Notes: generated by a model not told the origin, from the letters alone. A DNA stretch of 64,000 nt from an uncultured Nitrospira sp. (GCA_964412445.1 CAYPOR010000001.1:15586-79585), one strand, 5' to 3'; counted from the stretch's first letter, positions 2,482 through 27,379 are shown. Program-made: numbers and translations.

Positions 2482-2482
2482 A

Positions 2483-4073: not shown

Positions 4074-4084
4074 CGGTTCACCTT

Positions 4085-4167: not shown

Positions 4168-4170
4168 CAA

Positions 4171-4365: not shown

Positions 4366-5894
4366 GACTGTGATTCCTTTCGTATCTCCCAGGCGGCCAG
4401 ACCATCGGCCGGAGCAGCCGCCCGTTCAAAAATTTCCGCACAGGCCCTCACCTCGCCCGGATCGAACAGGTCGCCCATCTCCAGCACTTTTCCCTTGCCC
4501 TTCAACCCGCCCGCGAACTGAATCCGTTCCCACTGCATCGCCTTGATCTGATCGGGAAACCGCCGCACACAGAGTCCGCGCAGCCCGCCTCGGGTATCAC
4601 CAGGACCGGCCGACAGCGCCTGCTCAATGTCGGCCTCCGTCGTCATGCGCCAGGCCTTGCCTTCGGCTTCCAACCCGAGATACAGCCCGCGGTCCGCATT
4701 CACATTGTGATACTCGAGATCCAGACTGGCCATCCAAGGATCATCCCAGCCGATGCGTTCTTCCCGGATGAACGTCTCGAACAACCAGAGTTTGGTCACC
4801 CAATCGAGCTTGCCGACCAGCCGGCCGCGATCCTGTTTGAGCAACTCCAAGGTGTCGCCCCATTCGCGCAACACCCAGTCCGTGTCCGCATCGGCGCCGG
4901 CCAGCATGCGCCTGGCCGCCGTGTAATACTGCTCCTGAATCTCGATCCCGGAAAGAGCCGACCCTTGCTTCTGCCTCACGGCGGCCTTGAGGTCGGGATC
5001 CCGGGAAATCTGCTTCACCGCTGCAACCGGATCGGCCAGTTCAATCGCCGGGGCCGCACCCCGGTCGATCAACTCCAGCACCAATTGCGTCGTGCCGACC
5101 TTCAACGCCGTGGCATACTCGCACATATTGGCATCGCCGATGATCAGATGCAGCCGCCGGTACTTCGTCCGGTCGGCATGCGGCTCATCCCTGGTGTTCA
5201 GAACGGGCCGGTTATGCATCGTATCGACGCTCAGATCCGTCTCCATGAAATCGGCCCGCTGGGAGAGCTGATACTGCCCCGGAACGAATCCGCTTTCCTG
5301 CGCCTCGATGCCGACCTTTCCCGCACCGGCAATCACCTGGCGGCTCACGAGGAACGGGAGGAGCCCTGCGACCAGTTGCGGGAACGGAATCGAGCGCGAC
5401 ACGAGATAATTGTCGTGACAGCCGTAACTATGGCCGTGCAGATCGGTGTTGTTCTTGTACAGCTGTACGTGCGGCCCGCCCAGAGCGCGATTTCTCCGCT
5501 CAGCCGCGCGCTGCACCACCCGCTCGCCGGCCCGATCGTGGGCGAGCAGATCGCGCAAGGTCCGGCATTCCGGAGTCGAATATTCCGGATGGGTATGGTC
5601 GTTATAAAACCGGGCGCCGTTCGGCAGCACCAGGTCGCTTTTCATCTCATGAAATGAAAAGGGCCGGTGCGCATCGATCCTGGCGAAGTCGTCTTCTTCC
5701 TTATCCTGTTGGAGTCCGGACACCCGGAATCCACGGGCGTCGTCGTGCGGATCTTCGCCGCCATAATCCCAGCGCCGTTCGAACGACGCCGTCAAATGGG
5801 CGCGCACCAGCTCCATGGACTCGACGACCGGATCCACTTCCTCAAGATCCTCGCGCGTAATCCCGTACTCTGTTTCAATCCCGTAGAGTCGCAT
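4362..5894 (-). CDS. dop: Depupylase/deamidase Dop
   Basis: Start MRLYGIETEYG at 5894 (the ORF-track extension to 5999 overlaps arc). GARFYNDHTHPEYSTPEC, YKNNTD and GHSYGCHDNY are Dop-type motifs. Confidence 0.9.
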   Translation of the reverse strand: MRLYGIETEYGITREDLEEVDPVVESMELVRAHLTASFERRWDYGGEDPHDDARGFRVSGLQQDKEEDDFARIDAHRPFSFHEMKSDLVLPNGARFYNDHTHPEYSTPECRTLRDLLAHDRAGERVVQRAAERRNRALGGPHVQLYKNNTDLHGHSYGCHDNYLVSRSIPFPQLVAGLLPFLVSRQVIAGAGKVGIEAQESGFVPGQYQLSQRADFMETDLSVDTMHNRPVLNTRDEPHADRTKYRRLHLIIGDANMCEYATALKVGTTQLVLELIDRGAAPAIELADPVAAVKQISRDPDLKAAVRQKQGSALSGIEIQEQYYTAARRMLAGADADTDWVLREWGDTLELLKQDRGRLVGKLDWVTKLWLFETFIREERIGWDDPWMASLDLEYHNVNADRGLYLGLEAEGKAWRMTTEADIEQALSAGPGDTRGGLRGLCVRRFPDQIKAMQWERIQFAGGLKGKGKVLEMGDLFDPGEVRACAEIFERAAAPADGLAAWEIRKESQS

Positions 5895-5896
5895 GA

Positions 5897-7686: not shown

Positions 7687-8826
7687 TCAGTTGACCGCCT
7701 GGAGGGTAAGGGAGAGCTGCTGCCGTTTGTTCGCGCGGAGAATCTCGAGCGTCACCTGATCGCCGACCTTATGCGCCTCCATGACATCCATCATGTCGTC
7801 GATCGTCTCGACCGGCTTCCCGTCGATGGCGACCACGATGTCGCCGAGTTCGATCCGGCCGGCCTGCGTCTCCCGCGCGCCCCGCAGCCCGGCGCGATCG
7901 GCACTCCCGCCGCGCGCCACCTTCCCGATCACCAGCCCCTTGATGCCCCACCGTTTGACGATGGAATCAGGCACCAGCGACACGCCCAATCCCGGCCTGA
8001 TGAGCTTCCCGTGCTTGATCAGCTCCGGCACGATACGATTCACCGTGTCCACCGGAACCGCGAACCCGATGCCGGCATAGGCGCCGCTGGGACTGACGAT
8101 TTGCGTGTTCACGCCGATCAGCCGCCCGCTGCTGTCGAGCAGCGGCCCGCCGGAGTTGCCCGGATTGATCGCCGCGTCGGTTTGTACCACGCCCTCGATC
8201 GTCCGGTTCGACATCGACTTGATGGTCCGTCCCAGCGCGCTCACCACCCCCGTCGTCAGGGTATGGTCCAGCCCGAAGGGATTGCCGATCGCCAGGACTT
8301 TCTGCCCGACCCGCAAATCGTGCGACGCGCCGATCGCCAGCGGCTCCAGCAGAGTCTCCGGAACCTTGATCTGGAGCACCGCCAGGTCATGATCCGGATC
8401 GGCCCCCACGATCTTGGCCTGGTGCTCGCTCCGGTCGGCCAGCGTCACCTTGATCGCATCGGCCCCGTAGATGACATGAAAATTTGTGACGATATAGCCC
8501 TGCTTGCTCCAGATAAATCCGGAGCCGGAGCCCTGCGGGACTTCCATCGTATCGAAGGACCAGATGTCGCGTTGAATGGCGGTATTGGCGATGAAAACGA
8601 CCGACTTGGTGGCCCGCTCGAACACCGCCATGGTCGCGCGCTCGTCCGGGCTGAGTTCGGCCGGGGCGGGCGTCACCGGCCTGGGTCTGCCATCCGCGCC
8701 GTCGTACGCCCCGCCGAGCGGTTTGCCCCACTCGGCTCCCGTGGCCCATGCGCCACAGGCCAGCACGGCGGCACCCGCTGTCGCGCGCACAAGCCCTCGC
8801 ATGACGGACCGCAGCCTCATGATCAC
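7687..8826 (-). CDS. HtrA/DegP-family periplasmic serine protease with one PDZ domain
   Basis: Signal/TM segment; triad motifs VTNFHVI, DHDLAVL, INPGNSGGPL; C-terminal PDZ (GLVIGKV...AGL...GDIVVAIDG). Confidence 0.9.
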   Translation of the reverse strand: MIMRLRSVMRGLVRATAGAAVLACGAWATGAEWGKPLGGAYDGADGRPRPVTPAPAELSPDERATMAVFERATKSVVFIANTAIQRDIWSFDTMEVPQGSGSGFIWSKQGYIVTNFHVIYGADAIKVTLADRSEHQAKIVGADPDHDLAVLQIKVPETLLEPLAIGASHDLRVGQKVLAIGNPFGLDHTLTTGVVSALGRTIKSMSNRTIEGVVQTDAAINPGNSGGPLLDSSGRLIGVNTQIVSPSGAYAGIGFAVPVDTVNRIVPELIKHGKLIRPGLGVSLVPDSIVKRWGIKGLVIGKVARGGSADRAGLRGARETQAGRIELGDIVVAIDGKPVETIDDMMDVMEAHKVGDQVTLEILRANKRQQLSLTLQAVN

Positions 8827-9245
8827 TCACCGATGATTTGGAAGATCAACTCGCGCGTGCGTGAACGCGTATCGAAATCGACCACGACGATCTGCTGCCA
8901 GGTGCCCAGCAGCAGCGCGCCCCCGGAAAACGGAATCGTGACGGACGGCCCCTGCAACTGCCCGCGAAGGTGGCTGTGCCCGTTGTCTTCGCCGGCATTT
9001 CTCGTATTGTGCTGCCACGCCGGATCGGCCGGCACCGCTCGATCCCAAAACGTTTTCGTGTCGGCGCGAATGCCCGGCTCGTCTTCGATGATCATGACCG
9101 ACGCCGTCGTGTGCTTCACGAACACCGTGACGATCCCGGCGCGCAGACCCGAATCGGCAACCGCGGCCTGCACCGGCTTCGTCAGATTCTCGATGTGCGT
9201 GTCGCCGCGCAGATCCACCCGGGAGACAACGGTGTTCACAGTCAT
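8823..9245 (-). CDS. yjbQ: YjbQ / UPF0047 family protein (secondary thiamine-phosphate synthase family)
   Basis: VFVKHTTASVMIIEDEPG, HN...EDNGHSHLR, LLLGTWQQIVVVDFD. Start at 9245 (MTVNTVVSR). Confidence 0.85.
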   Translation of the reverse strand: MTVNTVVSRVDLRGDTHIENLTKPVQAAVADSGLRAGIVTVFVKHTTASVMIIEDEPGIRADTKTFWDRAVPADPAWQHNTRNAGEDNGHSHLRGQLQGPSVTIPFSGGALLLGTWQQIVVVDFDTRSRTRELIFQIIGE

Positions 9246-9246
9246 G

Positions 9247-10113
9247 TCAATGCTCCATCCGGCGCAGAAACTTCCGCTCGGCCGGCGAGAGACGGCAGCC
9301 GCGCGCCTCTTCCAGCACCCGATCGAACTCGCCGCCGGCGGCCAATCCACGCAACGCCGACATCACCGTCCGGCTCAAGATACCTTCCCGCTGCAACGTC
9401 TCCAGATAGGCAAACGCATCGGCGAGCGTTTCCTTCTTGCGCACGTAGTAATCGCGCCCGCGCTGCTGATTGCTGTAAGCCTCGAACTGTTCGCAGGCGA
9501 CCAGGATTTCCGCCAACTGCTTCACCCAGGCCGGAGCCGCAGCCAGTTTTTCAGGATAATAATAGTAGAGCATCACCCGCTGCATCCAGGGCTCCCACCG
9601 CACGCCCATCCGCGTGATCTCGCCGCGCACGGTCCGCAGCCGGCGCGAGAGCCGCCGCGCATAGCCCAGCCGCATCTCGACCTGCTCGCTTGCCCAGGCC
9701 GTCATGGGAATGCCTGCCGCATCGAGATCGCCGCGATACCGGCGCAAGAACGCTTCGGTCTCGCGTCCATACCGGGTTTCCGGATGCAGGGCCCGCCATT
9801 CGCGCGGCCTGGTCGGAATCCCCTGCGCTTTCGCCCAGGACCAGATTTTCCCGAACAGCGCCCGGTCCAGGCCGGCCCGGCCCAAATCGTGAAGCACGCA
9901 GGCAATCTGATACTGGCGGACCCGCGCGGAATCATGGCCCAGCGCGGCCGCCACCGCGGCACACATGCGCGCAGTGCGCACGGCATGCGGCCGGTCGTAT
10001 CCACGAATGATGCGGCGCGGAATCGTCGGATGCGGATAGTCGTAGAGACGCAGCAGCCGGGCGACGAGAGCGTTGGAAATCAACAACGGAGCGCGAGACG
10101 TGTTGACTGTCAT
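9247..10113 (-). CDS. HD-domain protein (degenerate HD-GYP-like phosphohydrolase)
   Basis: HAVRTARMCAAVA and ACVLHDLGRAG give the H...HD pattern. C-terminal EILVACEQFEAY resembles IxAVADxFDA; no GYP motif. Confidence 0.7.
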   Translation of the reverse strand: MTVNTSRAPLLISNALVARLLRLYDYPHPTIPRRIIRGYDRPHAVRTARMCAAVAAALGHDSARVRQYQIACVLHDLGRAGLDRALFGKIWSWAKAQGIPTRPREWRALHPETRYGRETEAFLRRYRGDLDAAGIPMTAWASEQVEMRLGYARRLSRRLRTVRGEITRMGVRWEPWMQRVMLYYYYPEKLAAAPAWVKQLAEILVACEQFEAYSNQQRGRDYYVRKKETLADAFAYLETLQREGILSRTVMSALRGLAAGGEFDRVLEEARGCRLSPAERKFLRRMEH

Positions 10114-10159
10114 GTGTTGTGCAACCGGAAGGACATCGAAATCGACATCGACTGCGGCG

Positions 10160-10189
10160 AGAATAGCGTCAGGCGAAACGAGGTGTCAA
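10160..10189 (-). promoter_or_regulatory. Sigma70-type promoter upstream of HD-yjbQ-htrA genes
   Basis: Minus strand TTGACA-N18-TATTCT, about 47 nt before the ATG at 10113. Confidence 0.55.
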
Positions 10190-10287
10190 GACAACGCCCC
10201 CGTCCCGGGACTCGATCAATTCATCGATTCTTGCTATGCTGCGCCGTGTCCTTCCGTAATCGATTCTCCCGAGATCCGAGGCGCGCC

Positions 10288-10926
10288 ATGACCTGCACAA
10301 AACCGCCGTTCACGCTGCTGGCCGGCCTGGCGCTGTTCGCCGCGGCCATCGGGTACGGGACGGATTCGCCGGCATCCCCGTTCGAGCAGCTCACCGATCT
10401 GACCGGAAAGGTCCCGGTCATCGTCACCCTGACGGGACGCGACAATTTTACGAGCGAATACCGCTACGACGTCAGCGTCCGCAATCTGACCGCCGATCCG
10501 CTGATCGCCGACTCGCTGCTCGTCGTCCTCGATAAAATTACGAACCTGGCCGGAGAAGACCATGAGGCCCTGACGAACGAACCCTTCCTCAACCGGTTCG
10601 ACGTCCTCGGACAGGATGGCGCAACCGACGACGGCAAACCCTTCTTCCGCATTCCACCCGGCAGCACCGCGGACATCGCTTCACAGACCACCAGCCGCGC
10701 CGCCTCCGTCCGGATCCGCAACCGGGACTACGTCGCCGTCTTCACGCCGGTCTTCAAAGTCTACGGCAACAAACGGCCGCCGCCCGAACCGAAACAGCCG
10801 GCCGTCCAGGCGCAGCCCGCTCCCCCTCAACGCCAGACGGACAAGCAGACCGAACGATTGCTCCAGTTACTGCTTAAGAAGGGCGTCATTACGGAAGAGG
10901 AGTGGCGCAAAGCCAATCAACCATGA
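10288..10926 (+). CDS. Exported hypothetical protein with SHOCT-like C-terminal tail
   Basis: Signal-peptide-like MTCTKPPFTLLAGLALFAAAIG; Pro/Gln linker; tail LLQLLLKKGVITEEEW. This is the real part of the 1051-aa track ORF. Confidence 0.7.
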   Translation: MTCTKPPFTLLAGLALFAAAIGYGTDSPASPFEQLTDLTGKVPVIVTLTGRDNFTSEYRYDVSVRNLTADPLIADSLLVVLDKITNLAGEDHEALTNEPFLNRFDVLGQDGATDDGKPFFRIPPGSTADIASQTTSRAASVRIRNRDYVAVFTPVFKVYGNKRPPPEPKQPAVQAQPAPPQRQTDKQTERLLQLLLKKGVITEEEWRKANQP

Positions 10927-11473: not shown

Positions 11474-12748
11474 ATGTCTCGTCGCATGGTATCCGTGGCC
11501 ATCCTTATTGTCCCGCTGTTCGGTGCACTTCCCGGTGAGCCGTTCGCTCAAACTGCGGACGAACAGATGGCCGCACCGCCGACGCCCGAATCTCCCTCCC
11601 CCGTTCTCAATGCGGATCCCGATCCGGCCAGCCAACATCCGGTACAAGACGAACACCGCCTCGCCGAATCGACCGGGCAGGCGCGCACCGATGCGGTCGC
11701 CGAGCTGAGCGAGCTGCGCGGCGCCGTCAGAACGTTCCCGGCCGACGCGGCGGCGCGCTTGCAATTGGCGCAAGGGCTCTATCGCGTCGGCGACCTCGAC
11801 GCCGCGCTCGACGAATGCCGCATCGCGCTCAAACTGCAGCCGAATCATCCCGAGGCGCTGCTGCAACTCGGCATCGTCTTCATGACGAAACAGGACGGGC
11901 ATGCCGCCGCCACCGCCCTGATGGAGGCCATTCTCCTCAACCCCGAACTCACCCATGCGCACTACAGTCTCGGCAGCGTCCAGTACTCGCTCGGCAACCT
12001 CAAAGCCGCGGCGCAATCCTACCGGCGGGCGCTCGAACTGCAGCCGCACTTCCCCGACGCCCGCTATCGGCTCGCGCTGGTGTTGAAGCTGACGAATCGC
12101 GATCAGGAAGCGGCGCAGTTCATGGAAGAAGCGGCCGCCGGCGGAGTCCCGCAGGCGCAATTCTTTTCAGGGAACGCCTACAAAAGCGGCCAGGGTGTCG
12201 CGAAGGATCTCGGGCGGGCCGTGTTCTGGTGGACCAGAGCGGTTGAATTCGGCCACCAGCAAGCGGCGGATGCCCTCGTGAAACTCCGGCGGCAGGCGCT
12301 GGCGGCCGATCGGACCGATCGACGGCGCAACGAGGCACTCGAAGGGTTTCGCGCCTACCGCGTCCTGCTCTGGGAAGAATTCCCGGACTACAGTCGCTCA
12401 GGAGACAGCGACACGGTGGGCGTTGCGCTGCGTAAAGACAACCGGACCGATGTCGCGGTCCCGGTGCTCCTTCAAGAAAGCTATGCGCTGAGCGACGTCG
12501 CGCTGGCCGAACTCGCTGGACTGTACGAAGCCGGATGGGCCGGGCATCTCGCGCCCTTCGACAAAAAGATTTTCACCTGCATCGAGACCCTCGCCGGTGA
12601 GGGCTTCGCGCCGGCCAAGAAAGCGCTCGCGCGCATCCACGGCCTGGGCCTCGGGGTGGCTCCGGATCGGGTCAAAGCGAAAGCCTCGCTCAAAGGCCTC
12701 CCGAAGCCGGACGCAACCGCGCTGATCGACGAACTGGGCCTCCGATAA
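11474..12748 (+). CDS. Secreted tetratricopeptide / SEL1-repeat protein
   Basis: Signal-peptide-like N-terminus. TPR repeats (ARLQLAQGLY...DAALDECRIALKLQPNH; AHYSLGSVQY...AAQSYRRALELQP); SEL1 repeats (AQFFSGNAYKSGQGVAKDLGRAVFWWTRA). Confidence 0.85.
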   Translation: MSRRMVSVAILIVPLFGALPGEPFAQTADEQMAAPPTPESPSPVLNADPDPASQHPVQDEHRLAESTGQARTDAVAELSELRGAVRTFPADAAARLQLAQGLYRVGDLDAALDECRIALKLQPNHPEALLQLGIVFMTKQDGHAAATALMEAILLNPELTHAHYSLGSVQYSLGNLKAAAQSYRRALELQPHFPDARYRLALVLKLTNRDQEAAQFMEEAAAGGVPQAQFFSGNAYKSGQGVAKDLGRAVFWWTRAVEFGHQQAADALVKLRRQALAADRTDRRRNEALEGFRAYRVLLWEEFPDYSRSGDSDTVGVALRKDNRTDVAVPVLLQESYALSDVALAELAGLYEAGWAGHLAPFDKKIFTCIETLAGEGFAPAKKALARIHGLGLGVAPDRVKAKASLKGLPKPDATALIDELGLR

Positions 12749-12753
12749 TTTCC

Positions 12754-15372
12754 ATGCTCGACCGGCACACACTCTGGCGGTTCTTCATTACCTCGCTGCC
12801 GCTCCAGGCGCTTACGATCGGACTCCTCGCCGCCGTGTCAAGCCACCTGCTCTGGCTCGCCGCCCCCGCGACCTTCACCGCCCTCGACTGGACCGCCTAC
12901 GACACCTGGCTGCGCCATCGCGCACGCATTGCTGCGAGTCCCGCCCTGACGATCGTCGTACGCGACCCTGCAAGCAGCGGGCAGTTCGGAACCGGGCCGT
13001 TGGACCGGGCCGTCCTGGCTCAACTGATCGCCGCCGCCCATGACGCGGGGGCCGCCGCCATCGGTCTCGACCATCGTCTCGACCATGCCAGTCCTGCGCA
13101 TCTGGGCGGAGCCGCCAGCGATGCGCTGCTCCTGGAGGCCATCAACACCGCCGGCCGCGTCGTGACCGTCTACGATGAAGAAGCCCCGCTGGCATCGGAT
13201 TCAATTATTCAAGGACACCTCGCCCTGTCCTCTCACAGCGATCACGTGGCCCGCGCCGTTCCGCTCTTCATCGAACAAGGCTCCCGAATGACGCCGTCGT
13301 TCGGACTGGCGTTGTTTGCAAGCGCGACGAATCAGCCGCCGGCCGGCGCGACCGGCGACACACAGCTCATCAACCCGGTCGGCGGAGGTACATTGACCGA
13401 CTTGCCGGCCATCCCGCTGTCGTCGGTATGGAACGCCCTCCAACAGCACGATACGGCCGCCCTCGACGGATGGTTCAAAGGCCACGTCGTGACCATTCTG
13501 TCGCAGGCCTCCGCCTCGACACCCTGGCTGCTGCCGACCGGGCAATCCGTCGACGGCATGACCGCACACCTTCATCTCCTCAACAACCTGCTCACCGGCG
13601 ACCGGCTCTGCCGGATCGGGGCCGCCGGACGCGGCAGTCTCGCCATCGTCGTCGCGGCCCTCGTCGCCTGGTGCCTGCTGTACTTCCGCGGAACGGCCAG
13701 TCTGCTGCTCGCGGCCGGCGCCATTGCACTCTACGGCGCCGTCGCCGCCGCCGCCCTCGGCGGACTGCATCTCGTGCTGCCGGTCGCGCTGCCGCTCACC
13801 GCCGCGCTGTTTGTCCTGCTTGGCACCACCGCCTGGACGCACCTGACAGCGGGCCAGCGCATGAGGCTGCTGGAACAGGACATGCTCCGCATCCGACAGG
13901 ACACCGCCGCCGTGCGGGAAGCCCTCGTGCTGCGAGAGAATCGCGCCGAAGCCTTGCAGGAAGATCTGGACGCAGCCAAAACCGCCGCGGCGCACTCAGC
14001 CGGTAAGCGGCAGGATCTCGCCCGCACCACCGAGTCCCTGCGGGCCGAACTGGCCGAGGTGCAGGCGCAGGAACAGGCCGCCCGCGAACAGCTCGCACGA
14101 CTGGAGCGGCAACTGCACGATCTGCGAGCCGCCGGCGACGAATCCCGTGCCCTCGGCGACGCCGCGCTCAACCAGCTGGCCGTCGAATGCCGGCAACTCG
14201 GCATCATCACCGGAGACGCGTCGCTTCTGCGCCTGTTCCGGGATCTGAAGAAAGGCGCCGGATCGCCCCTGACCGTGCTGCTGCTCGGAGAACCGGGCAC
14301 CGGCAAGGAACTCCTCGCCCGCGCGGTCCACCGGCTCAGCCCCAGATCGGGCAAGACCTTCATCGCCGTCAATATGGCGGCCATCTCGCCGGAGCTGTTT
14401 GAAAGCGAACTCTTCGGCCACACCAAAGGCAGTTTCACCGGCGCCACTGTTGACCGGCGCGGCTATTTCGAACTGGCCGATCACGGCACGATCTTTCTGG
14501 ACGAAATCGGCGATCTCCGGCTGGATCACCAGAGCAAACTGCTCCGCGTGCTGCAAGAAAAGTCCTTCTATCGCGTGGGCGCGACGACGCCTATCACCGT
14601 AGATGTGCGCATCGTCGCCGCGACCAATCGCGACCTGCAACGCGGAGTCTCCGAAGGCTGGTTCCGGGAGGATCTCTATTTCCGGTTGAAAGGATTGGTG
14701 TTCAGACTGCCGCCGTTACGGGAGCGCACAGCGGACATCCCCCTGCTGGCCGACGTCTGCCTGGCCGACATCGCGACGCAGATGGGACGGCCGGTCCCGA
14801 AACTTTCCAATGAGGCGCTGCGCCTCTTGACCGAACACGACTGGCCGGGCAACGTCCGGGAGTTCCGCCATGCGCTGGAGCGGGCCGTCGCATTGAGCGA
14901 TGAGCCGGTGCTGACGAAAACGGCCTTCGCCCTGGAAGGATCCGGAGCGCCAGAACCGTCCAGCAGATCGACCCGGACGACTCTGCTGCCGGAGCCCGCC
15001 GGCGACGCCGCGGTGCTGAGCTGCCTGCGGCAGCACAGCTTCGATATGCAGGCCACGGCAAAAACGCTGGGCTGGGACCGCAGCACCGTCACCCAGCGAT
15101 TGAAAGGCCTGTGCTTCCAGGCTCTCGTCGAATCCCGAGGCGACCAGGCCAAAGCCGCGCTCGCCGTCGCCGGCGATCCAAGCCAGTTGAGGACCGTGGA
15201 ACTGAAGCTGCTGGACTACCACAGCCATCTCATGTCCGTCATTGCCCCGTTCACGAGCGCAGACAAAGCACTCCCCGACTGCAAACGACGTTTCAAGAAT
15301 CTACCGGACCGGCATTTCGCCTCGGTCGAATGGCTTGTACGCCGGCACTTTTCCCAAACCTCCCGCCCTTAA
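12754..15372 (+). CDS. Membrane-anchored sigma54-dependent activator: CHASE2 sensor + 3 TM + coiled coil + AAA+ + HTH
   Basis: TM, CHASE2-like region (IVVRD...RAVLAQLIAAAHDAGAAAIGLDHRLD), three TMs, long coiled coil, GEPGTGKELLARAVH, ESELFGHTKGSFTGA, GTIFLDEIGD, FREDLYFRL, WPGNVRE, HTH (ATAKTLGWDRSTVTQRLK). Confidence 0.88.
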   Translation: MLDRHTLWRFFITSLPLQALTIGLLAAVSSHLLWLAAPATFTALDWTAYDTWLRHRARIAASPALTIVVRDPASSGQFGTGPLDRAVLAQLIAAAHDAGAAAIGLDHRLDHASPAHLGGAASDALLLEAINTAGRVVTVYDEEAPLASDSIIQGHLALSSHSDHVARAVPLFIEQGSRMTPSFGLALFASATNQPPAGATGDTQLINPVGGGTLTDLPAIPLSSVWNALQQHDTAALDGWFKGHVVTILSQASASTPWLLPTGQSVDGMTAHLHLLNNLLTGDRLCRIGAAGRGSLAIVVAALVAWCLLYFRGTASLLLAAGAIALYGAVAAAALGGLHLVLPVALPLTAALFVLLGTTAWTHLTAGQRMRLLEQDMLRIRQDTAAVREALVLRENRAEALQEDLDAAKTAAAHSAGKRQDLARTTESLRAELAEVQAQEQAAREQLARLERQLHDLRAAGDESRALGDAALNQLAVECRQLGIITGDASLLRLFRDLKKGAGSPLTVLLLGEPGTGKELLARAVHRLSPRSGKTFIAVNMAAISPELFESELFGHTKGSFTGATVDRRGYFELADHGTIFLDEIGDLRLDHQSKLLRVLQEKSFYRVGATTPITVDVRIVAATNRDLQRGVSEGWFREDLYFRLKGLVFRLPPLRERTADIPLLADVCLADIATQMGRPVPKLSNEALRLLTEHDWPGNVREFRHALERAVALSDEPVLTKTAFALEGSGAPEPSSRSTRTTLLPEPAGDAAVLSCLRQHSFDMQATAKTLGWDRSTVTQRLKGLCFQALVESRGDQAKAALAVAGDPSQLRTVELKLLDYHSHLMSVIAPFTSADKALPDCKRRFKNLPDRHFASVEWLVRRHFSQTSRP

Positions 15373-15692: not shown

Positions 15693-15708
15693 CGGCACCC
15701 GGATTGCA
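15693..15708 (+). promoter_or_regulatory. Sigma54 (-24/-12) promoter
   Basis: CGGCAC-CCGGA-TTGCA matches YGGCAC-N5-TTGCW with exact GG-N10-GC spacing. Lies directly downstream of a sigma54 activator gene. Confidence 0.75.
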
Positions 15709-15766
15709 CAAGTTTCCGCGCCCGCTTAGGACAATATTTATTTTTATTTATTCTTTGGATTTCTTC

Positions 15767-18700
15767 ATGACACCCTCTTCCTACAATAAAGAACTCCGCT
15801 TGACTCAGGCCTCTCTGGCTGTCACGACAACCGCCACCGCTCTGCTGATCTGGTCGACCGGTTCGGTCGCCAGAACAGCCTTCGAACAAGGACAGATCAG
15901 CCATCTGCTGGAAGCCTTGCTCTTCGGAGCCCTGGCCGGATTCCTGGTCTACGGCAATCTGTGTTACCAGTTGGCGCGGCTTGGGCAGCTGAGACGGGAC
16001 GCGGCATTCCGGATGACTGCCGCGCAGCCGGCCAGACCCTTCGATCCCCTGTCAGCTCCGGCCCTCACGGTCCTGGTGCCTTCTTACAAAGAAGAACTCC
16101 CCGTCATCCGCCAGACGCTCCTGTCCGCCGCACTGCAGAACTACCCGAACAAGCGGGTCGTGCTGCTTCTGGATAATCCGCCCGCCCCCAAGACGTTGTC
16201 TGACCGGGCCGAGCTCTGGGCGGCGCGCAATCTCCCCTTTGAATTGCAGACATTGCTTGACGAACCGGCGGCCAGGACGGACCACGCCCGCGCGGCGTTT
16301 CTGGCCAGACGATCGAGCGGCACAGTCACCATGGCCGACGAATGCGTGTGGCTCTCGGATTGTTTCCGGTCGGCCGCCCAATGGTTCGAAACCCAGGCGA
16401 AGCACTTCCCGACCGATTCGCACACCGATGTCTGGTTTGTCGAACAGATACTCAGCCGGCCGGCCGAATCCTGCCGCGAACAAGCCGCCCGATGGTTCGC
16501 CAGACGGAGAGAGCCGGCACCGGCCCCCGACGATCAACTCCTCGCCGGAATCGACGCCGCCTATGCGGAACTGGCCGCCCGTTTCCAGGTCGAGTTCGAC
16601 GTCTTCGAGCGGAAGCAGTACTGCAACCTGTCGCACGAGCCCAACAAGGCGATGAACTTGAACAGCTACCTGGGCCTGATGGGCAAGCGTGTACGCCCCG
16701 TCATGCGCCCGGCGGGGCTTGCGCTGGAAGAGTCCTCCCTGCCGAACGGCAGCCGCCTCATCGCGGATACGCCCTACGTCATCACGCTCGATGCCGACAG
16801 CCTGTTGAAACCTCACTACGCCAGCACCCTGGTGCGGCTGATGGAACAGCCGGACTATGCCCGGGTCGCCGTCGCCCAAACGCCCTACAGCGCCTTTCCC
16901 AACGCACCGGGCGTGCTGGAGCGAACCGCCGGGGCCACGACCGACATTCAATATCTGGTGCACCAGGGCTTCACCCGGTATGGCGCCACCTTCTGGGTCG
17001 GGGCCAATGCCTTGCTGAGAAAGTCGGCGCTCGACGACATCCGCAGCGAATCCGTCGAGGGCGGCCATATTGTTCGCCGCTACATCCAGGACCGGACCGT
17101 CATCGAAGACACCGAATCGACCGTCGATCTCCTCGCCAAAGGCTGGTCCCTGCACAATCACCCGGAGCGGCTGGCCTACAGCGCCACCCCGCCGGATTTC
17201 GGATCACTGGTCATCCAACGGGCCCGTTGGGCCAACGGAGGCTTGATCATTCTGCCCAAGCTGCTGTCGCTCCTGCGCCGCATGCCGAAGCGGATGAGCA
17301 CATTGCCGCAAGCCCTGCTGCAGATTCATTATCTGACCTCGCTCGCCTTCGCGCCATTGAGCGTGCTGCTCCTGCTGATCATCCCCTTTTCCTCCGAGTT
17401 GATGAATCCCTGGATGCCGCTCGCCGCGCTGCCCTACTTCGCGCTCTACGCCCGCGATCTGGCGAAGATCGGCTATCGCCCGTTCCGGGATCTGTTGCGG
17501 GTCTATGCCCTCAATCTGCTGTTGATCCCCATCCACCTCACCGGTGCAATCACGTCGATGCAGCAAGCCATCGCCGGCACGAAGATCCCGTTCCGCCGGA
17601 CACCCAAGATTTCCGGACGAACCAGAACGGCGGGGTTGGATCTGGCCCTGCAGCTGGGGATGGTCCTCACCAGCGTGACCTTGGGGCTCTTCTACGTTTC
17701 CCGGCTGCGATGGATTTCCGGAGCCTTTGCGCTGGCCAACGCCGGCCTCCTGCTTTACGGCATCAGACAATTCATCGGTTTCGCCGAAATGCAGCAGGAT
17801 CTCAGATTGAGCCTCACTGAAACCTTCGACAGCATCACCGGCAGAATACGCACAACCTGGTCGCCGCTCAGCGCCCGATCACTTGCCCCGCTGACCTTCG
17901 CGATGGAACGGAGCAAGGGGTTCGTCCTGCCCGTCCGTGCGCGGATCGCCTCGCGCCAGGCGCTCTGGAGCCTGCTGGTGGTGCTGGAGGCCTTCTCCCC
18001 GGCGCTCGCAACCGGCGAATCGACGCTTCCCCTCAATCCCGTACAAATCGAAAATCGCAAACCCGGCACCGGCGCCTGGATCCTCACCAAGCCGGCACGG
18101 AACCATGAGATCGAGGGCTATGCCTCGGCCACCAGCGTCAACCGGGGCGAAACCCTTCGCTTCTACGTCAATACACTCGCGCCGACCTACCGGCTCACGA
18201 TCTATCGTATGGGGTGGTACGGAGGCCTGGGAGCGCGGCAGATATCCGGCCCGACGGAACTACCGGGCTACCGGCAGCCGGCCCCCGTGCACGATCAGGA
18301 CACCGGATTGATCGAATGCCGGTGGGAACATCCGGCCGTACAGGCAATCCCGACCGGCGGCGAGGGAACGGAGCCCTGGGTATCGGGATACTATCTGGCC
18401 AAATTGACCGCGGAACCCACGGGAGAAGAAAGCTACATCCTGTTCATCGTGCGGGACGACCGGCGGCCTTCGACCTATCTCGTCCAGGCCAGTGTGACGA
18501 CCTATCAAGCCTACAACAATTGGGGCGGCCGCTCGCTCTACTCATTCAACAGCCCCGGAGGCCAGGCCACAAAAGTCTCGTTCAACCGTCCCTACGCAGG
18601 CAGCGCCATTCCGGCCGCGGCCACAGGCACCGGCGCGGGCGATTTCCTGATTTCCAATTCGATTCCGCCCGGCTACCAAGCCTCCCCCGCCGGCTGGGAA

Positions 18701-19474
18701 TACAACATGGTCCGCTGGCTGGAGCAGGAAGGCTACGACGTCACCTACGCCACGAATATCGACGTCCATGTGAAGCCTTCGCTGCTCGCCTCCCACAAAG
18801 CCTTTCTCTCGCTCGGACACGATGAATACTGGACCGGGGAGATGCGACGCCACATCGAGCAGGCGCGCGACCGGGGCCTGCATCTGGGCATCTTTTCATC
18901 GAATACCTGCTATTGGCAAATGCGGCTGGAGCCCAGCCGCCTCACGGGCGAACCGGACCGCACGATGGTCGCCTACAAAGAAAATACGCCGTGGCACGAT
19001 CCCTTTTCGACCGATCAGAATCCGGAGAACGATCACCTCGTGACGACACGCTGGCGCAGCGCCCCCGTGAATCGCCCGGAAGCGGATCTGCTCGGGTCCA
19101 TGTATATCGAAGTCGACCATCCCGTCGACGGCGACTTTGTGATCCAGGATGCCGAGCCCTGGCTGCTGGCGAATACCGGACTCAGTACAGGCTCTCTGCT
19201 CCCCGGCCTGGCAGGCTACGAAGTCGACGGACTGAGTACGTCCAGCCCGGTTGGCACGAGCGTCGTGGCGAGGATGGTCGATAGCCGGACGCCGGGCGCC
19301 GTCACACTCTACCGCGCCGCAAGCGGCGCGCTGGTATTTGCAACAGGATCAATGCAATGGAGCTGGGGGCTCGACGATTACCAGGCCCCGCACCTGCGCA
19401 CGTCCGTGCTAAATCCGGCGGTCCAACAGATCACCAGAAATGTGCTGGCCCGGTTCGCGCACGCAGACGACTGA
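15767..19474 (+). CDS. Processive GT2 polysaccharide synthase fused to a C-terminal N,N-dimethylformamidase large-subunit-like domain
   Basis: GT2 motifs VLVPSYKE, KAMNLN, TLDADS, QTPY, FWVGANALLR, IEDTES, QRARW, then TMs. After a signal-like segment: ENRKPG, IEGYAS..SV..GE, TYQAYNNWGGRSLY, VSFNRPY, LSLGHDEYW, GSMQWSWGLD. The in-frame TTG at 15704 lies inside the promoter, so ATG 15767 is preferred. Confidence 0.85.
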   Translation: MTPSSYNKELRLTQASLAVTTTATALLIWSTGSVARTAFEQGQISHLLEALLFGALAGFLVYGNLCYQLARLGQLRRDAAFRMTAAQPARPFDPLSAPALTVLVPSYKEELPVIRQTLLSAALQNYPNKRVVLLLDNPPAPKTLSDRAELWAARNLPFELQTLLDEPAARTDHARAAFLARRSSGTVTMADECVWLSDCFRSAAQWFETQAKHFPTDSHTDVWFVEQILSRPAESCREQAARWFARRREPAPAPDDQLLAGIDAAYAELAARFQVEFDVFERKQYCNLSHEPNKAMNLNSYLGLMGKRVRPVMRPAGLALEESSLPNGSRLIADTPYVITLDADSLLKPHYASTLVRLMEQPDYARVAVAQTPYSAFPNAPGVLERTAGATTDIQYLVHQGFTRYGATFWVGANALLRKSALDDIRSESVEGGHIVRRYIQDRTVIEDTESTVDLLAKGWSLHNHPERLAYSATPPDFGSLVIQRARWANGGLIILPKLLSLLRRMPKRMSTLPQALLQIHYLTSLAFAPLSVLLLLIIPFSSELMNPWMPLAALPYFALYARDLAKIGYRPFRDLLRVYALNLLLIPIHLTGAITSMQQAIAGTKIPFRRTPKISGRTRTAGLDLALQLGMVLTSVTLGLFYVSRLRWISGAFALANAGLLLYGIRQFIGFAEMQQDLRLSLTETFDSITGRIRTTWSPLSARSLAPLTFAMERSKGFVLPVRARIASRQALWSLLVVLEAFSPALATGESTLPLNPVQIENRKPGTGAWILTKPARNHEIEGYASATSVNRGETLRFYVNTLAPTYRLTIYRMGWYGGLGARQISGPTELPGYRQPAPVHDQDTGLIECRWEHPAVQAIPTGGEGTEPWVSGYYLAKLTAEPTGEESYILFIVRDDRRPSTYLVQASVTTYQAYNNWGGRSLYSFNSPGGQATKVSFNRPYAGSAIPAAATGTGAGDFLISNSIPPGYQASPAGWEYNMVRWLEQEGYDVTYATNIDVHVKPSLLASHKAFLSLGHDEYWTGEMRRHIEQARDRGLHLGIFSSNTCYWQMRLEPSRLTGEPDRTMVAYKENTPWHDPFSTDQNPENDHLVTTRWRSAPVNRPEADLLGSMYIEVDHPVDGDFVIQDAEPWLLANTGLSTGSLLPGLAGYEVDGLSTSSPVGTSVVARMVDSRTPGAVTLYRAASGALVFATGSMQWSWGLDDYQAPHLRTSVLNPAVQQITRNVLARFAHADD

Positions 19475-19549: not shown

Positions 19550-20620
19550 ATGACATCCGGAGCGACACCTCTCCAGACGACCGGACCGCTCCATGGCAGC
19601 CCTGCATCCGCCTCACACTCGGCCCGGTTCGACGTCATGCGGGTCGTCGCCTGCCTGGCGGTCATCCTGCTGCACCTGGCCGCCACCGTCGTGATGGAAC
19701 GCGAATTCCTGGGCAGCATCCACTGGCACATCTCCAATGCCATCGACGCCGCCACCCGCTGGTGCGTGCCGGTGTTCGTCATGCTGAGCGGCGCGCTGCT
19801 GCTCGACCCGCAGAAACACGCAAGCCCGCGCGAGTTCTGGACGAAGCGCATGGGCCGGCTGCTGCCCGCCATGCTCGCCTGGCCCGCCATGTATTTTGCC
19901 TGGCGCGCCTTCTACTGGCATGAGCCGCTCTCGCCCGGCACCATCGCGCACGACCTGGTCGTCGGCCGGCCCTATGTCCATCTCTACTTTTTGTTTCTTA
20001 TCGCCGGGCTCTACCTCGTCACGCCATTTCTGGCGAACACCCTCGGCACACTCAGCCTCCCGCAGCTCCGGCACCTGATTCTGATCATGGCCGGCCTGGC
20101 CATGGGAGCCAACCTGTTCGACTTTCTCGCGTCCAGCGCTTTCACCATGTTCGTGCCCTATCTGACCTACTACCTCGCCGGCTGGTATTGCGCGCGGCGG
20201 TTGCACGATCGCCCAAGCGCCTCCGCGCTGGCCATCGGCCTCGCCGCCGGCCTCACTACCGGACTGACGGCCCTCCTGGTTTCAACCAGAGGATTCGACG
20301 ACCGCTGGGCCTTCTATTTCTATGAGGACTTCAGCCCCACCGTCATGGTCATGGCCGTAAGCCTCTTTCTCCTGACTTTGCAGGGAACGATCCCGCCACG
20401 AATCGAATCTCTCGCCGGGACGCTTGCGCCGCTCACGCTCGGCGTCTACCTGGCCCACCCCATCGTGGTGGAGCTGCTGCGCTACGGCTACTACCTGGCC
20501 ATCCCGATCCTGCTCCGCCCTCCCTACTATGTACCCGTTACGTTCCTCATCACCTGCGCCATCACCTTCAGCCTCGTCGCCCTCATGCAGCGGGTGCCGG
20601 GCCTGCAACGGATCGTCTAG
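19550..20620 (+). CDS. Acyltransferase family 3 (WecH/OafA-like membrane O-acyltransferase)
   Basis: FDVMRVVACLAVILLH, RWCVPVFVMLSGALL, HLYFLFLIAGLYL, TLGVYLAHP; about 10 TM helices. Confidence 0.88.
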   Translation: MTSGATPLQTTGPLHGSPASASHSARFDVMRVVACLAVILLHLAATVVMEREFLGSIHWHISNAIDAATRWCVPVFVMLSGALLLDPQKHASPREFWTKRMGRLLPAMLAWPAMYFAWRAFYWHEPLSPGTIAHDLVVGRPYVHLYFLFLIAGLYLVTPFLANTLGTLSLPQLRHLILIMAGLAMGANLFDFLASSAFTMFVPYLTYYLAGWYCARRLHDRPSASALAIGLAAGLTTGLTALLVSTRGFDDRWAFYFYEDFSPTVMVMAVSLFLLTLQGTIPPRIESLAGTLAPLTLGVYLAHPIVVELLRYGYYLAIPILLRPPYYVPVTFLITCAITFSLVALMQRVPGLQRIV

Positions 20621-24227: not shown

Positions 24228-24243
24228 CGGCACTCCGGTTGCT
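24228..24243 (+). promoter_or_regulatory. Sigma54 (-24/-12) promoter
   Basis: CGGCAC-TCCGG-TTGCT with exact GG-N10-GC spacing, about 150 nt upstream of the OmpA-domain gene. Confidence 0.72.
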
Positions 24244-25285: not shown

Positions 25286-27379
25286 ATGACCAGACATCTG
25301 TTTCTTCGCGCAACGTTCGCCCTGGTTCTCTCGCTGGGCGCCGGCAGCCTGTCGCTCGCGCCGGCCTGCGGGAATGAACTGGAACAACCGGACCGGACGA
25401 TTGCGTTGAGTGAAGTGAACGGCGGCAGGCTGCTCTTCAAGACGAATCAGCCCGGCCGCTTTCTTCCCGCCCCTACCCTCAAAACCGACGTCCGCATCTC
25501 CGTCACCGGCCTCATCGCCCGCGCCACCGTGTCACAGGAATTTCTGAACCCAAGTCTGGAGAAAGACGCCTGGGCTGAGGGGATCTATGTGTTCCCTCTT
25601 CCGGACACCGCCGCAGTCGATCACCTGCGCATGAAGATCGGCGAGCGGATCATCGAAGGCCAGATCAAGGAAAAGATGGAAGCCAAGAAAATCTACGAGC
25701 AGGCGAAGCAGGAGGGCAAACGGACCAGCCTGGTCGAGCAGGAGCGACCGAACATCTTTACAACCTCAGTAGCCAACATCGGCCCCGGCGAACGCATCAC
25801 CGTCGAGATCGAGTATCAGGAGACGATCCGCTACGACCAGGGGGTCTTCTCGTTGCGGTTTCCGATGGTCGTCGGCCCGCGTTACATCCCCGGGACGCCG
25901 GTGGTAATGGAGGATCAGCCGCCGGGCAACGGCTGGTCACTCGATACGGATCGCGTGCCGGATGCCTCGCGGATTACGCCGCCGGTGCAGCATCCTGATT
26001 ATGGCTCAATTAATCCGGTCAGCCTGACCATCGATCTCGCGCCGGGCTTCTCCCTCGGCAAGCTTGAATCGCCCTATCACCAGATCCTCACCATCGCCGA
26101 ACCGGACGGCCGGCAACACATCACGCTGCGCGAAGATACAGTCCCGGCCGATCGTGATTTCGTTCTGACCTGGAAACCCACGACAGGCCAGGCACCCACC
26201 CTCTCCGTCTTTCGTGAACAGCAGGGCGACGAGCAGTATGCCTTTCTGATGGCGATGCCGCCGGTCGGCTCAGATCACTCGCAAGCGCCGGTGGCGCGCG
26301 AAACGATCTTCGTCATCGACACTTCCGGCTCCATGTCCGGCACCTCGATTGAGCAGGCCAAGGCCGCGCTGCTGCTCGCCCTGAATCGCCTGACCGCGCA
26401 GGATCGCTTCAACGTGATTCAATTCAACAGCGTCACCCATGTGCTGTTTTCCCAAGCGCAGCCGGTGAAACCGGACACGCTGCGCAAGGCCGTACACTAC
26501 GTCGACAATCTGAAGGCCAACGGCGGTACGGAGATTCTCCCCGCGTTGAAAATGGCCTTGAAAGGCAGCGCGCCTGCCTCGCACCTCCGGCAAATCATCT
26601 TCCTGACGGATGGCCAGGTCGGCAACGAGGATGAACTGTTCGAGGTTATCCGCACGCAACTCGGCGCAAGCCGCCTCTTCACCATCGGCATCGGCTCGGC
26701 GCCGAACAGCCACTTCATGCACAAGGCGGCGGAATTCGGACGCGGCACCTTCACCCACATCGGCAGCACCAGCGAAGTGAAAGCGCAGATGGATGCCATC
26801 TTCCGCAAGCTGGAACGGCCTGCGCTGACGGACCTCCACATCGAGGGCTTAGACGAACAGGTCGAAATGTTTCCCTCCCGCATTCCGGATCTCTATGAGG
26901 GCGAACCGGTCCTGGCGGTCTTGAAGGGAACAGCCCTTCCGGACACCGTCACGATCCACGGCCTGATCGGGTCTGCCCCCTGGACGACATCGATCACGCT
27001 GAAACACCGTGACAGTCGTGAAGGCTTGTCCGTCTACTGGGCGCGGCAGAAGATCGCCGCCCTGATGGACCAGCAGCGCTATGGGCAAGATGAGGCTGCG
27101 ACGAGGCAAGCCGTGCTCGATGTGGCCCTCGCCCATCACCTTGTCAGCAAGTACACCAGCCTCGTTGCAGTGGATGTGACGCCGGTGCGCCCGCGCGACC
27201 AGGCGCTGCAATCCCATGCGATGAAGACGAATCTGCCGAACGGGCAGGACTATCAGACGATCTTCGGGCTGCCGCAGACCGCCACGAGCGGGCAGCTGCA
27301 AATTCTGCTGGGCCTTGCCGCGCTGCTGGCAGCCTGGCTGATGTGGAGCGTGCGGGGATATCGGAAACGCATCGCATGA
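25286..27379 (+). CDS. VIT + vWA domain sortase target protein (marine proteobacterial sortase target type)
   Basis: Signal peptide; VIT domain (V..EF.NP...WAEGIYVFPLP..AAV..L.M.IG.RII.G); MIDAS DTSGSM, IIFLTDG; C-terminal LPQTAT + hydrophobic helix + RKR. Confidence 0.9.
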   Translation: MTRHLFLRATFALVLSLGAGSLSLAPACGNELEQPDRTIALSEVNGGRLLFKTNQPGRFLPAPTLKTDVRISVTGLIARATVSQEFLNPSLEKDAWAEGIYVFPLPDTAAVDHLRMKIGERIIEGQIKEKMEAKKIYEQAKQEGKRTSLVEQERPNIFTTSVANIGPGERITVEIEYQETIRYDQGVFSLRFPMVVGPRYIPGTPVVMEDQPPGNGWSLDTDRVPDASRITPPVQHPDYGSINPVSLTIDLAPGFSLGKLESPYHQILTIAEPDGRQHITLREDTVPADRDFVLTWKPTTGQAPTLSVFREQQGDEQYAFLMAMPPVGSDHSQAPVARETIFVIDTSGSMSGTSIEQAKAALLLALNRLTAQDRFNVIQFNSVTHVLFSQAQPVKPDTLRKAVHYVDNLKANGGTEILPALKMALKGSAPASHLRQIIFLTDGQVGNEDELFEVIRTQLGASRLFTIGIGSAPNSHFMHKAAEFGRGTFTHIGSTSEVKAQMDAIFRKLERPALTDLHIEGLDEQVEMFPSRIPDLYEGEPVLAVLKGTALPDTVTIHGLIGSAPWTTSITLKHRDSREGLSVYWARQKIAALMDQQRYGQDEAATRQAVLDVALAHHLVSKYTSLVAVDVTPVRPRDQALQSHAMKTNLPNGQDYQTIFGLPQTATSGQLQILLGLAALLAAWLMWSVRGYRKRIA

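Follow-up and report, generated by a model that had tools for sequence, protein, structure and literature searches.

Synthase-dependent exopolysaccharide (EPS) systems, such as those for cellulose, poly-N-acetylglucosamine (PNAG), Pel and alginate, consist of a synthase and periplasmic tailoring enzymes. PgaC/PgaB of E. coli and IcaA/IcaB/IcaC of staphylococci combine a PNAG synthase with a CE4 de-N-acetylase and, in the staphylococcal case, with the AT3-family protein IcaC. De-N-acetylation by CE4 enzymes makes PNAG and Pel cationic and adhesive. Here we describe a gene of an uncultured Nitrospira sp. that resembles these systems but departs from them in its modifying enzyme. It occupies 15767..19474 (plus strand, stop codon included) of a stretch of 64,000 nucleotides (GCA_964412445.1 CAYPOR010000001.1:15586-79585, GC content ~0.63), hereafter the window, from whose first letter all positions are counted. 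Its 1235-residue product is laid out as a BcsA-like processive GT2 synthase (aa 1 to ~700), a basic linker, a hydrophobic helix (aa 732-748), which we call TM7 as the seventh transmembrane (TM) helix, and a 487-aa domain of the DMFA2_C family. Like PgaBC and IcaABC, the locus thus combines a processive GT2 with a predicted extracytoplasmic polymer-modifying enzyme and has an Acyl_transf_3 gene alongside; moreover, a CE4 domain takes the same position in sister Nitrospira loci. Unlike in PgaBC and IcaABC, the modifying module belongs to the dimethylformamidase (DMFase) family instead of CE4 and is fused to the synthase via an extra TM helix; in addition, no PgaA-like porin or PgaD was seen, and control here would be of the sigma54/CHASE2 type. 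What is new is a tailoring enzyme that is outside CE4 and fused to the synthase, within a PgaBC/IcaABC-like way of working. We regard the architecture itself (synthase, TM7 and DMFase-family domain) as close to certain.

The gene was delimited by open reading frame (ORF) scan, Pfam search, ortholog search and independent contigs. The scan gave a single uninterrupted plus-strand ORF from a TTG at 15704 to 19474, in agreement with a preliminary description, made from the sequence alone, of one unbroken frame at 15767-19474. Since orthologs of 1235 aa share the same initial Met and the TTG at 15704 lies within the -12 element of a sigma54 promoter, we took the ATG at 15767 as the true start and ruled out the TTG. 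Two Pfam families frame the protein: Glyco_trans_2_3 (PF13632) at aa 337-560 (E 6e-32) and DMFA2_C (PF20254) at aa 810-1205 (E 1.8e-109, 367 bits versus a cut-off of 27), the latter matched over profile positions 2-372 of 374. The motifs listed in the preliminary description all proved to be correctly placed, both in the synthase (LLLDNP at aa 133, KAMNLN at 294, TLDADS at 340, QRARW at 484) and beyond it (MERSKG at 713, which corresponds to ATG 17903, PALATG at 745, TYQAYNNWGG at 912, GHDEYW at 1017), and the C-terminal domain estimated at ~490 aa measures 487 aa from nucleotide 18011.

The fusion is recurrent. A full-length search retrieved the same architecture in proteins from many independent sources (P0002-P0065, 56-87 % identical, 1211-1285 aa), whose named carriers are all Nitrospira, and a scan of GTDB species representatives found it in about 20 genomes of Nitrospira, Nitrospiraceae or Nitrospirota (L010-L030). 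Recurrence in other genomes, proposed earlier as a check, therefore extends to more than 60 protein clusters and about 20 species representatives. Nor is there a stop or frameshift near the junction that would signal an assembly artefact: contigs of four independent sequencing runs, from several samples and studies, span 17311-18500 with zero indels and zero stops. The runs holding this sequence are biofilter and bioreactor metagenomes. The linker keeps the reading frame in every ortholog. An internal start at ATG 17903 was ruled out, as Met713 is unconserved and replaced by Ile or Thr in the close orthologs P0002 and P0010.

The C-terminal part (aa 749-1235, 18011..19471, plus strand) is a predicted periplasmic DMFase-family domain made of a beta-sandwich and a catalytic alpha/beta region. 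Its AlphaFold2 (AF2) model (pLDDT 90.5, pTM 0.87) starts with the beta-sandwich, which is Ig-like, and continues into the alpha/beta region. Foldseek comparison of this model with the PDB returned only 8huy (E 5.6e-21) and 6lvb (E 3.9e-20, TMq 0.64), and the next match (E 2e-5) was unrelated. Single-sequence phmmer search of the domain against the PDB gave no match even at E<=10; a 40-sequence profile matched DMFase (E 4.6e-26) and N-acetyl-(R)-beta-phenylalanine acylase (E 4.7e-24). The profile also matched peptidoglycan N-acetylglucosamine (GlcNAc) deacetylases weakly (E 0.16-0.23), which we took as chance. That the motifs mark the DMFase large-subunit family, as stated in the preliminary description, is borne out by the Pfam and profile E values given above and by Foldseek at E ~1e-20. 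The family is not strictly an orphan one, as had been assumed, because it has two characterised members. The domain falls within PF20254, as a minimal member of the DMFase family, but is no DMFase proper (EC 3.5.1.56), and its natural substrate is certainly not N,N-dimethylformamide (DMF). PF01522 did not match anywhere in the protein, so that the relation to CE4/NodB enzymes is one of analogy.

DMFase binds Fe(III) through Y399, Y440 and E521, and H519 and N547 are essential (PMC7686228). The characterised member thus has a 2-Tyr-1-Glu iron site, as the preliminary description had stated. By alignment, Y399 and Y440 correspond to Y916 (18512-18514) and Y925 (18539-18541), H519 and E521 to H1018 and E1020 of the GHDEYW motif (codons of H1018-D-E1020 at 18818..18826), and N547 to N1046 of FSSNTCYW (18902..18904), all on the plus strand. 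Among 330 full-length homologs of the domain, Y916, Y925 and E1020 are each conserved in 328, H1018 in 326 and N1046 in 315 (with Asp in another 13), and all five residues are kept in the fusion clade. The domain appears to keep a complete predicted mononuclear-metal site (Y916, Y925, E1020) together with the catalytic residues H1018 and N1046.

Like the large subunit of Paracoccus DMFase (6lvb), the domain combines homologous beta-sandwich and catalytic parts with identical Tyr/Tyr/Glu iron ligands and the essential His and Asn. It differs from that enzyme in being only ~15 % identical, synthase-fused and predicted to be periplasmic instead of cytoplasmic, and in lacking both the ~300-residue domain II and the small subunit. 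The profile alignment showed no counterpart of DMFase residues ~31-335 (domain II), and no small-subunit gene lies beside the fusion, whose neighbours encode an enhancer-binding protein (EBP) and an AT3 protein, the next gene being only 76 nt away. DMFase proper is a heteromer of a three-domain large subunit and a ~15-kDa small subunit encoded alongside. This small subunit is needed for activity and, with adjoining elements, gives DMFase its narrow entrance (PMC7686228). The absence of domain II and small subunit would be compatible with a more open active site. N-acetyl-(R)-beta-phenylalanine acylase (8huy, 8i59, 8i5a) is the best structural match and shares the TYQAY, Y, H-x-E-Y and N motifs (TYQAY, GAY, HPEY and GGNGFYW in its own sequence). 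By its depositors' name it removes an N-acetyl group, which is the chemistry we propose here. Unlike the domain, to which it is ~14 % identical, the acylase has ~770 aa with extra inserted regions and a small-molecule substrate.

The clue to what this domain may do comes from relatives that carry CE4 (PF01522) in its place (P0073, P0074, P0078, P0079, P0082, P0086 and P0105; 1050-1106 aa). Their synthase part is 65-68 % identical, PF01522 replaces DMFA2_C at the same position after TM7, and in the loci L002 and L008 the gene directly follows the same TPR and CHASE2-sigma54 activator genes. The CE4 module has intact TVDD, HTFSH and RYPY motifs, and its best solved relatives are peptidoglycan GlcNAc de-N-acetylases. 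TM7 and the motif PALA[AT]G are shared as well, and a vestige of ~40 aa of the DMFA2 N-terminus precedes the CE4 domain (RDLTQLQNARAGATDWILTKDAGRVEIEGI versus LNPVQIENRKPGTGAWILTKPARNHEIEGY). In a neighbour-joining tree of the GT2 part only, CE4-fused proteins fell inside the DMFA2_C-fused clade (100/100 bootstraps), next to the DMFA2_C-fused P0039 and P0046. Since CE4-fused proteins nest within this clade and keep the vestige, the DMFA2_C fusion is ancestral, and CE4 displaced it in situ at least once. The non-homologous swap by a bona fide polysaccharide deacetylase at the same operon position is the strongest argument at hand that the two modules do equivalent jobs.

The tree also showed that CE4-fused proteins are not monophyletic (0/100 bootstraps), with the two DMFA2_C-fused proteins P0039 and P0046 and one TM7-only protein interleaved. 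This interleaving suggests more than one displacement or recombination between alleles. As read from the orthologs, the DMFA2_C module is a part that has been lost several times. One such natural deletion is found in Nitrospira sp. NS4 (L024 6001-9578, NZ_JBMWAN010000003.1), where GT2 and TM7 are kept, ~40 residues of DMFA2 remain, and AT3 and NUDIX genes directly follow the truncated synthase.

Between synthase and domain lies a basic, cytoplasmic linker (aa 671-731, 17777..17959, plus strand), assigned from sequence and AF2 models and modelled at low confidence. After TM6 (aa 649-670), a helix precedes this poorly predicted stretch, and 12 Lys/Arg residues fall within aa 645-731. TM7 follows (ALWSLLVVLEAFSPALA, aa 732-748, 17960..18010, plus strand), with a hydropathy of 1.51, a helical conformation in both AF2 models and an AxA-type site before T749. 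Internal as it is, the stretch at aa 721-748 has the features of a Sec-type signal: a positive n-region (RARIASRQ), a hydrophobic h-region (ALWSLLVVLEAF) and a c-region with small residues at -3/-1 (SPALA/TG). The AxA site is retained in the closest clade and becomes VxG or LxG in distant clades, and P-x-x-x-x-G is common to DMFA2_C- and CE4-fused orthologs. Because the GT-A domain is cytoplasmic and four TM helices follow it, as in the BcsA core, the linker should be cytoplasmic and TM7 should export what follows. The C-terminal 487 aa are accordingly predicted, from the models, to lie in the periplasm.

Stand-alone homologs point to the origin of TM7. They carry a Sec or Tat signal peptide directly before NP[IV]Q.EN, a motif that also follows PALA/TGESTLPL here, and 181 of the 222 complete non-fusion homologs have such an N-terminus right before it. 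Distant GT2 orthologs (P0108-P0120) stop before TM7, and those of N. japonica and relatives stop just after it. TM7 is best described as a signal peptide kept from a secreted protein that was once separate, with cleavage at PALA as a possibility. The simplest history consistent with these sequences is that a synthase gene fused with a downstream secreted DMFA2_C gene, whose signal peptide became TM7. The earlier description of an internal signal-peptide-like segment therefore stands in its signal features and its AxA site in the nearest clade, and is refined to a retained signal peptide acting as TM7.

The signal peptides of stand-alone homologs are Sec-like in Nitrospira and of the twin-arginine type (RRxFLKAF) in cyanobacteria. 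Twin-arginine (RRxFLK) signals were seen in P0168, P0176, P0228, P0158, P0139 and P0186, which are cyanobacterial and other stand-alone homologs, implying that these would be exported folded and possibly metal-loaded. Nitrospira homologs and the fusion would use Sec-type insertion instead of Tat.

The N-terminal ~700 aa are, on the basis of motifs and models, a processive channel-forming GT2 synthase of the BcsA/CesA/HAS type. TM helices 1 and 2 (aa 3-84, 15773..16018, plus strand as for all parts of the synthase) show hydropathy peaks at aa 17-35 and 44-62 and AF2 helices at 3-40 and 44-84 (pLDDT >90). They are followed by the cytoplasmic GT-A catalytic domain (aa ~90-505, 16034..17281), supported by Pfam GT2 models, BcsA alignment and Foldseek, and by TM helices 3-6 with interface helices (aa 510-670, 17294..17776), a putative polymer channel recognised from AF2 (helices at 510-538, 549-568, 572-603, 623-645 and 649-670), hydropathy and fold match to BcsA, CesA and hyaluronan synthase (HAS). 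Three GT2 models scored above threshold (PF13632 with 111.5 bits against a cut-off of 27, PF13641 with 58.5, PF00535 with 39.6). The protein has the catalytic motifs D136, D342-A-D344, E447-D448 and Q484-R-A-R-W488, which do not vary among 36 orthologs. The AF2 model of the synthase part (pLDDT 81.9) comprises TM1-2, GT-A, interface helices and TM3-6. BcsA is the nearest solved relative by sequence (phmmer E 1e-12) and also tops the Foldseek matches (4p00, E 3.8e-13), with plant CesA, hyaluronan synthases and chitin synthases coming next.

The synthase shares with BcsA (4hg6, 4p00) its catalytic motifs and the way in which TM and interface helices are arranged. Unlike BcsA, it has two instead of four N-terminal TM helices, no PilZ domain (no Pfam match in the fusion protein), no BcsB partner, an extra C-terminal TM helix with a periplasmic enzyme behind it, and a 130-aa four-helix insertion in GT-A. 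This insertion (aa 144-273, 16196..16585), noticed before as a helical segment of the GT2, consists of four long AF2 helices (144-184, 189-213, 219-248, 255-273; pLDDT mostly >90), contains many invariant residues and is absent from BcsA, whose alignment covers aa 89-166 and 338-541 only and leaves a gap between 166 and 338. The insertion is highly conserved in the family and may serve in regulation, oligomerisation or partner binding. The protein scored far below the cut-offs of the NCBIfam equivalog models for CelA/BcsA (TIGR03030, 69.8 versus 699.1 bits) and PgaC/IcaA (TIGR03937, 35.6 versus 422.3 bits), and the cut-off of the NodC equivalog is likewise far above its score. We therefore dropped an assignment of the sugar from the GT2 sequence.

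Taken together, we think it probable that the protein is a bifunctional inner-membrane enzyme, an EPS synthase with a tethered or released periplasmic de-N-acetylase that is analogous, not homologous, to PgaB/IcaB. For the de-N-acylation reaction as such, our confidence is modest but on the favourable side. According to this scheme, the two N-terminal TM helices, the cytoplasmic GT-A domain and the four further TM helices with interface helices would form the synthase, which would build a chain from a sugar nucleotide on the cytoplasmic side and pass it out through a pore of its own. Past TM6, the polypeptide would again be cytoplasmic, and the basic linker and TM7 would carry 487 aa into the periplasm. 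There, the putative Fe-dependent amidohydrolase, tethered or released by signal peptidase, would strip part of the acetamido (N-acyl) groups as the polymer emerges, and the product would be a partly de-N-acetylated, cationic hexosamine polymer. The AT3 protein may add O-acyl groups, as proposed for IcaC, and a sigma54 promoter and the adjacent CHASE2 EBP would drive transcription. A shared job of the two modules is suggested by the exchange of DMFA2_C and CE4 in situ at the same locus position. A periplasmic polymer de-N-acylase as counterpart of PgaB/PelA had already been suggested in the preliminary description; the CE4 swap, the N-acetyl amidohydrolase among the relatives and the secreted, lectin-bearing and glycosyltransferase-adjacent homologs speak strongly for it, and from these we infer activity, metal and N-acetylhexosamine substrate, next to a predicted topology and a presumed regulation.

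Several observations weigh against this scheme. The two relatives with known activity have buried active sites and small substrates, and one of them, DMFase, depends on a small subunit for which the present protein has no counterpart (PMC7686228). What the swap demonstrates is that the position can be filled by CE4; it does not demonstrate a common reaction of the two domains. The DMFA2_C domain is wholly lost in several lineages (N. japonica, Nitrospira sp. NS4) and hence dispensable for synthesis. The GT2 part scores higher on the cellulose-synthase model (69.8 bits) than on that of PgaC/IcaA (35.6 bits), both being far below the cut-offs. Cyanobacterial homologs would be exported by Tat in a folded and possibly cofactor-loaded state, whereas folding and metal uptake must both happen in the periplasm for a domain placed after a TM helix. 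Finally, no outer-membrane export component or porin was identified next to the gene.

The domain might act on the polymer in another way, either as an O-acetyl or O-acyl esterase that trims groups added by AT3, for example on a beta-glucan, or as a glycan-cleaving enzyme that releases or sizes the polymer. Glycan-cleaving roles are played elsewhere by BcsZ, the C-terminal domain of PgaB and the hydrolase domain of PelA. The closeness of the GT2 part to cellulose synthases fits such a role, as does the AT3 gene that follows the fusion in two clades; CE4 itself includes O-acetyl esterases, with a weak match to the acetylxylan esterase 2c71, and metallohydrolases often accept esters. Yet both characterised relatives hydrolyse amide C-N bonds with the same conserved residues, the best solved relatives of the replacing CE4 module are GlcNAc de-N-acetylases of peptidoglycan, CE4-fused loci are without AT3, and Foldseek gave no match to a glycosidase-like fold. 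We therefore consider an esterase or glycanase unlikely, though worth keeping in mind.

Alternatively, the domain could be an amidohydrolase whose substrate is a small molecule of the periplasm with no relation to the polymer, such as an N-acylated amino compound or a cell-wall fragment, and the fusion would only anchor or co-regulate it. The known substrates of the family, DMF and N-acetyl-beta-phenylalanine, are indeed small, and many stand-alone homologs, especially cyanobacterial ones, have no adjacent glycan genes. Against such a role stand a covalent fusion to a polymer-secreting synthase that is conserved over ~56-87 % identity and the in-situ exchange for a polysaccharide deacetylase. 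Lectin- and carbohydrate-binding-module-type partner domains in the family, and the loss of domain II and small subunit, which form the narrow entrance of DMFase, argue in the same direction, and we judge this explanation to be quite unlikely.

An inert module that binds carbohydrate or guides the growing chain, as BcsB does in the case of BcsA, would suit a position right after a TM helix next to the synthase, comparable to the BcsB anchor, and the Ig-like beta-sandwich at the N-terminal side of the domain. We hold it to be very improbable, since the catalytic residues are 95-99 % conserved family-wide and complete in the fusion clade, the replacing module is an enzyme with intact motifs, and the domain has been lost without loss of the synthase. 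That the long frame is an assembly or sequencing artefact joining a GT2 gene to a secreted DMFA2_C gene deserves practically no credence: the junction does resemble an N-terminal signal peptide preceded by an ATG (17903), and secreted stand-alone homologs exist, but the same unbroken frame recurs in all those clusters and species representatives, the linker is in frame in every ortholog, the contigs of the four runs agree, and Met713 is unconserved.

The de-N-acetylase proposal was also viewed in the light of the wider DMFA2_C/DUF6605 family. An exhaustive search, with clusters at 50 % identity, yielded 9,236 clusters at E<=1e-3 and 2,443 at E<=1e-30. Usually, the domain comes right after the N-terminus and is followed by long extensions made of cell-surface and carbohydrate-binding modules: PKD, BACON, FG-GAP, LamG, DUF4082, F5/8 type C, Malectin, Ricin-B and Ig-like. 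Examination of N-terminally extended proteins for another catalytic partner of DMFA2_C gave Ig, lectin and PKD modules only. Nitrospiraceae and many cyanobacteria have stand-alone homologs of ~500 aa (48-59 % identical), as do one acidobacterium and one actinobacterium. A census of the 105 immediate neighbours at 56 stand-alone loci had GT4 glycosyltransferases as the commonest family (13). In addition, in Nostoc PCC 7524 the domain gene has GT2-GtrA and PMT_2 genes next to it, and contexts in other cyanobacteria vary. Neighbours of this kind, at 13 loci for GT4 and in the Nostoc GT2-GtrA/PMT_2 cluster, answer the earlier objection that the domain might never be found next to glycosyltransferases.

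All GT4 neighbours are genes of ~350 aa that lie 19-66 nt downstream of a secreted DMFA2_C gene in Nitrospiraceae. Such pairs were seen at L032-L041, L045, L052, L053, L071 and L007, and at L007 a PF01182 gene (glucosamine-6-phosphate isomerase / 6-phosphogluconolactonase family) follows. Judged by gene order, the DMFA2_C-GT4 pair is a second, independent glycan context for the domain. Our literature search retrieved no paper linking DMFA2_C, PF20254 or DUF6605 to polysaccharides, none on N-acetyl-(R)-beta-phenylalanine acylase or 8HUY, and none on this fusion in Nitrospira EPS.

A broader proposal can be put forward tentatively. The main secreted branch of DMFA2_C/DUF6605 (>9,000 clusters) could be a new class of extracytoplasmic glycan de-N-acetylases with 2-Tyr-1-Glu iron, unrelated to CE4, of which DMFase and the acylase would be derived small-molecule offshoots. 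In Nitrospira, an EPS synthase would then have captured the enzyme, signal peptide included, and signal peptidase may cut the fusion at PALA/TG into a synthase and a released enzyme. We consider this quite possible, though short of probable.

Upstream of the fusion, on the same strand, lie the other two genes of a TPR-EBP-synthase block. The first (11474..12748) encodes a TPR-repeat protein of 424 aa, assigned by Pfam TPR families, with a signal-like N-terminus (MSRRMVSVAILIVPLFGALPG). The second (12754..15372) encodes a CHASE2 sensor / sigma54 EBP of 872 aa (CHASE2 E 1.9e-23, Sigma54_activat E 2.5e-63, AAA_lid_14, HTH_8), the probable activator of the synthase gene. This synteny is kept in L002, L008, L010, L013-15, L018, L024 and L025, and the EBP gene is directly upstream of both DMFA2_C- and CE4-fused synthases. 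Downstream, after 76 nt, follows the gene for an Acyl_transf_3 (AT3) membrane acyltransferase of 356 aa (19550..20620, plus strand; PF01757 E 3.3e-35). The order TPR, EBP, synthase fusion, AT3 and NUDIX is conserved in the closest clade. AT3 directly follows the fusion in two separate clades (L011-15 and L025; L023, L026, L029 and L030); a distant clade with this arrangement lacks the EBP.

A pattern scan located a sigma54-type -24/-12 element, GGCAC-N5-TTGCA (GGCACccggaTTGCA), at 15694..15708 (plus strand), 59 nt before the ATG, in keeping with the GG-N10-GC type of sigma54 promoter (TGGCAC-N5-TTGCW). The pattern has 2 matches in the 64 kb against 0.17 expected. The N. japonica ortholog is likewise preceded by it (TGGCACcgcgaTTGCT), and so is the CE4 locus L008, though with one mismatch there. 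Transcription is probably initiated at a sigma54 promoter controlled by the adjacent CHASE2 EBP. When RNA runs were sought, those retrieved were all of unknown type. No c-di-GMP-binding module, such as PilZ, was seen next to the gene. The second exact match in the window (GGCACtccggTTGCT, 24229-24243, plus strand) lies ~1 kb upstream of a VIT-VWA gene (25286-27379) and may belong to the same regulon.

One long plus-strand ORF (7771-10926, 1051 aa) was considered as an export component and rejected: it has no Pfam match, is rich in His, Asp, Arg and Pro, and overlaps minus-strand ORFs at 7687-8826 and 9247-10113. It is probably spurious, and the minus-strand ORFs are likelier to be real; at the corresponding place, L002 has a trypsin/PDZ gene. 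Elsewhere in the window, a Pup-proteasome cluster at 997-7624 (minus strand) comprises two Pup_ligase-family genes (997-2481 and 4362-5999), a proteasome subunit gene (2483-3307) and a gene for an ARC-type AAA ATPase with OB domains (5897-7624). The CE4 locus L002 is flanked by these genes too. In addition, the product of 28182-30221 (minus strand), 679 aa long, carries a caspase-like Peptidase_C14 domain (E 2.3e-6) in its C-terminal part.

The fusion is a clear case of a signal peptide recycled as an internal TM helix. In it, the tailoring position of an EPS synthase is filled by a member of a large, almost uncharacterised family, of which the only members studied so far break down either a synthetic solvent or an unnatural amino-acid derivative, and the exchange with CE4 provides a concrete lead to the natural function of PF20254 proteins. 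If true, our proposal would add to the carbohydrate de-N-acetylases a new class that uses unusual Tyr-ligated iron chemistry, and it would give insight into matrix production by Nitrospira, whose members are key to nitrite oxidation and comammox in biofilters and wastewater biofilms.

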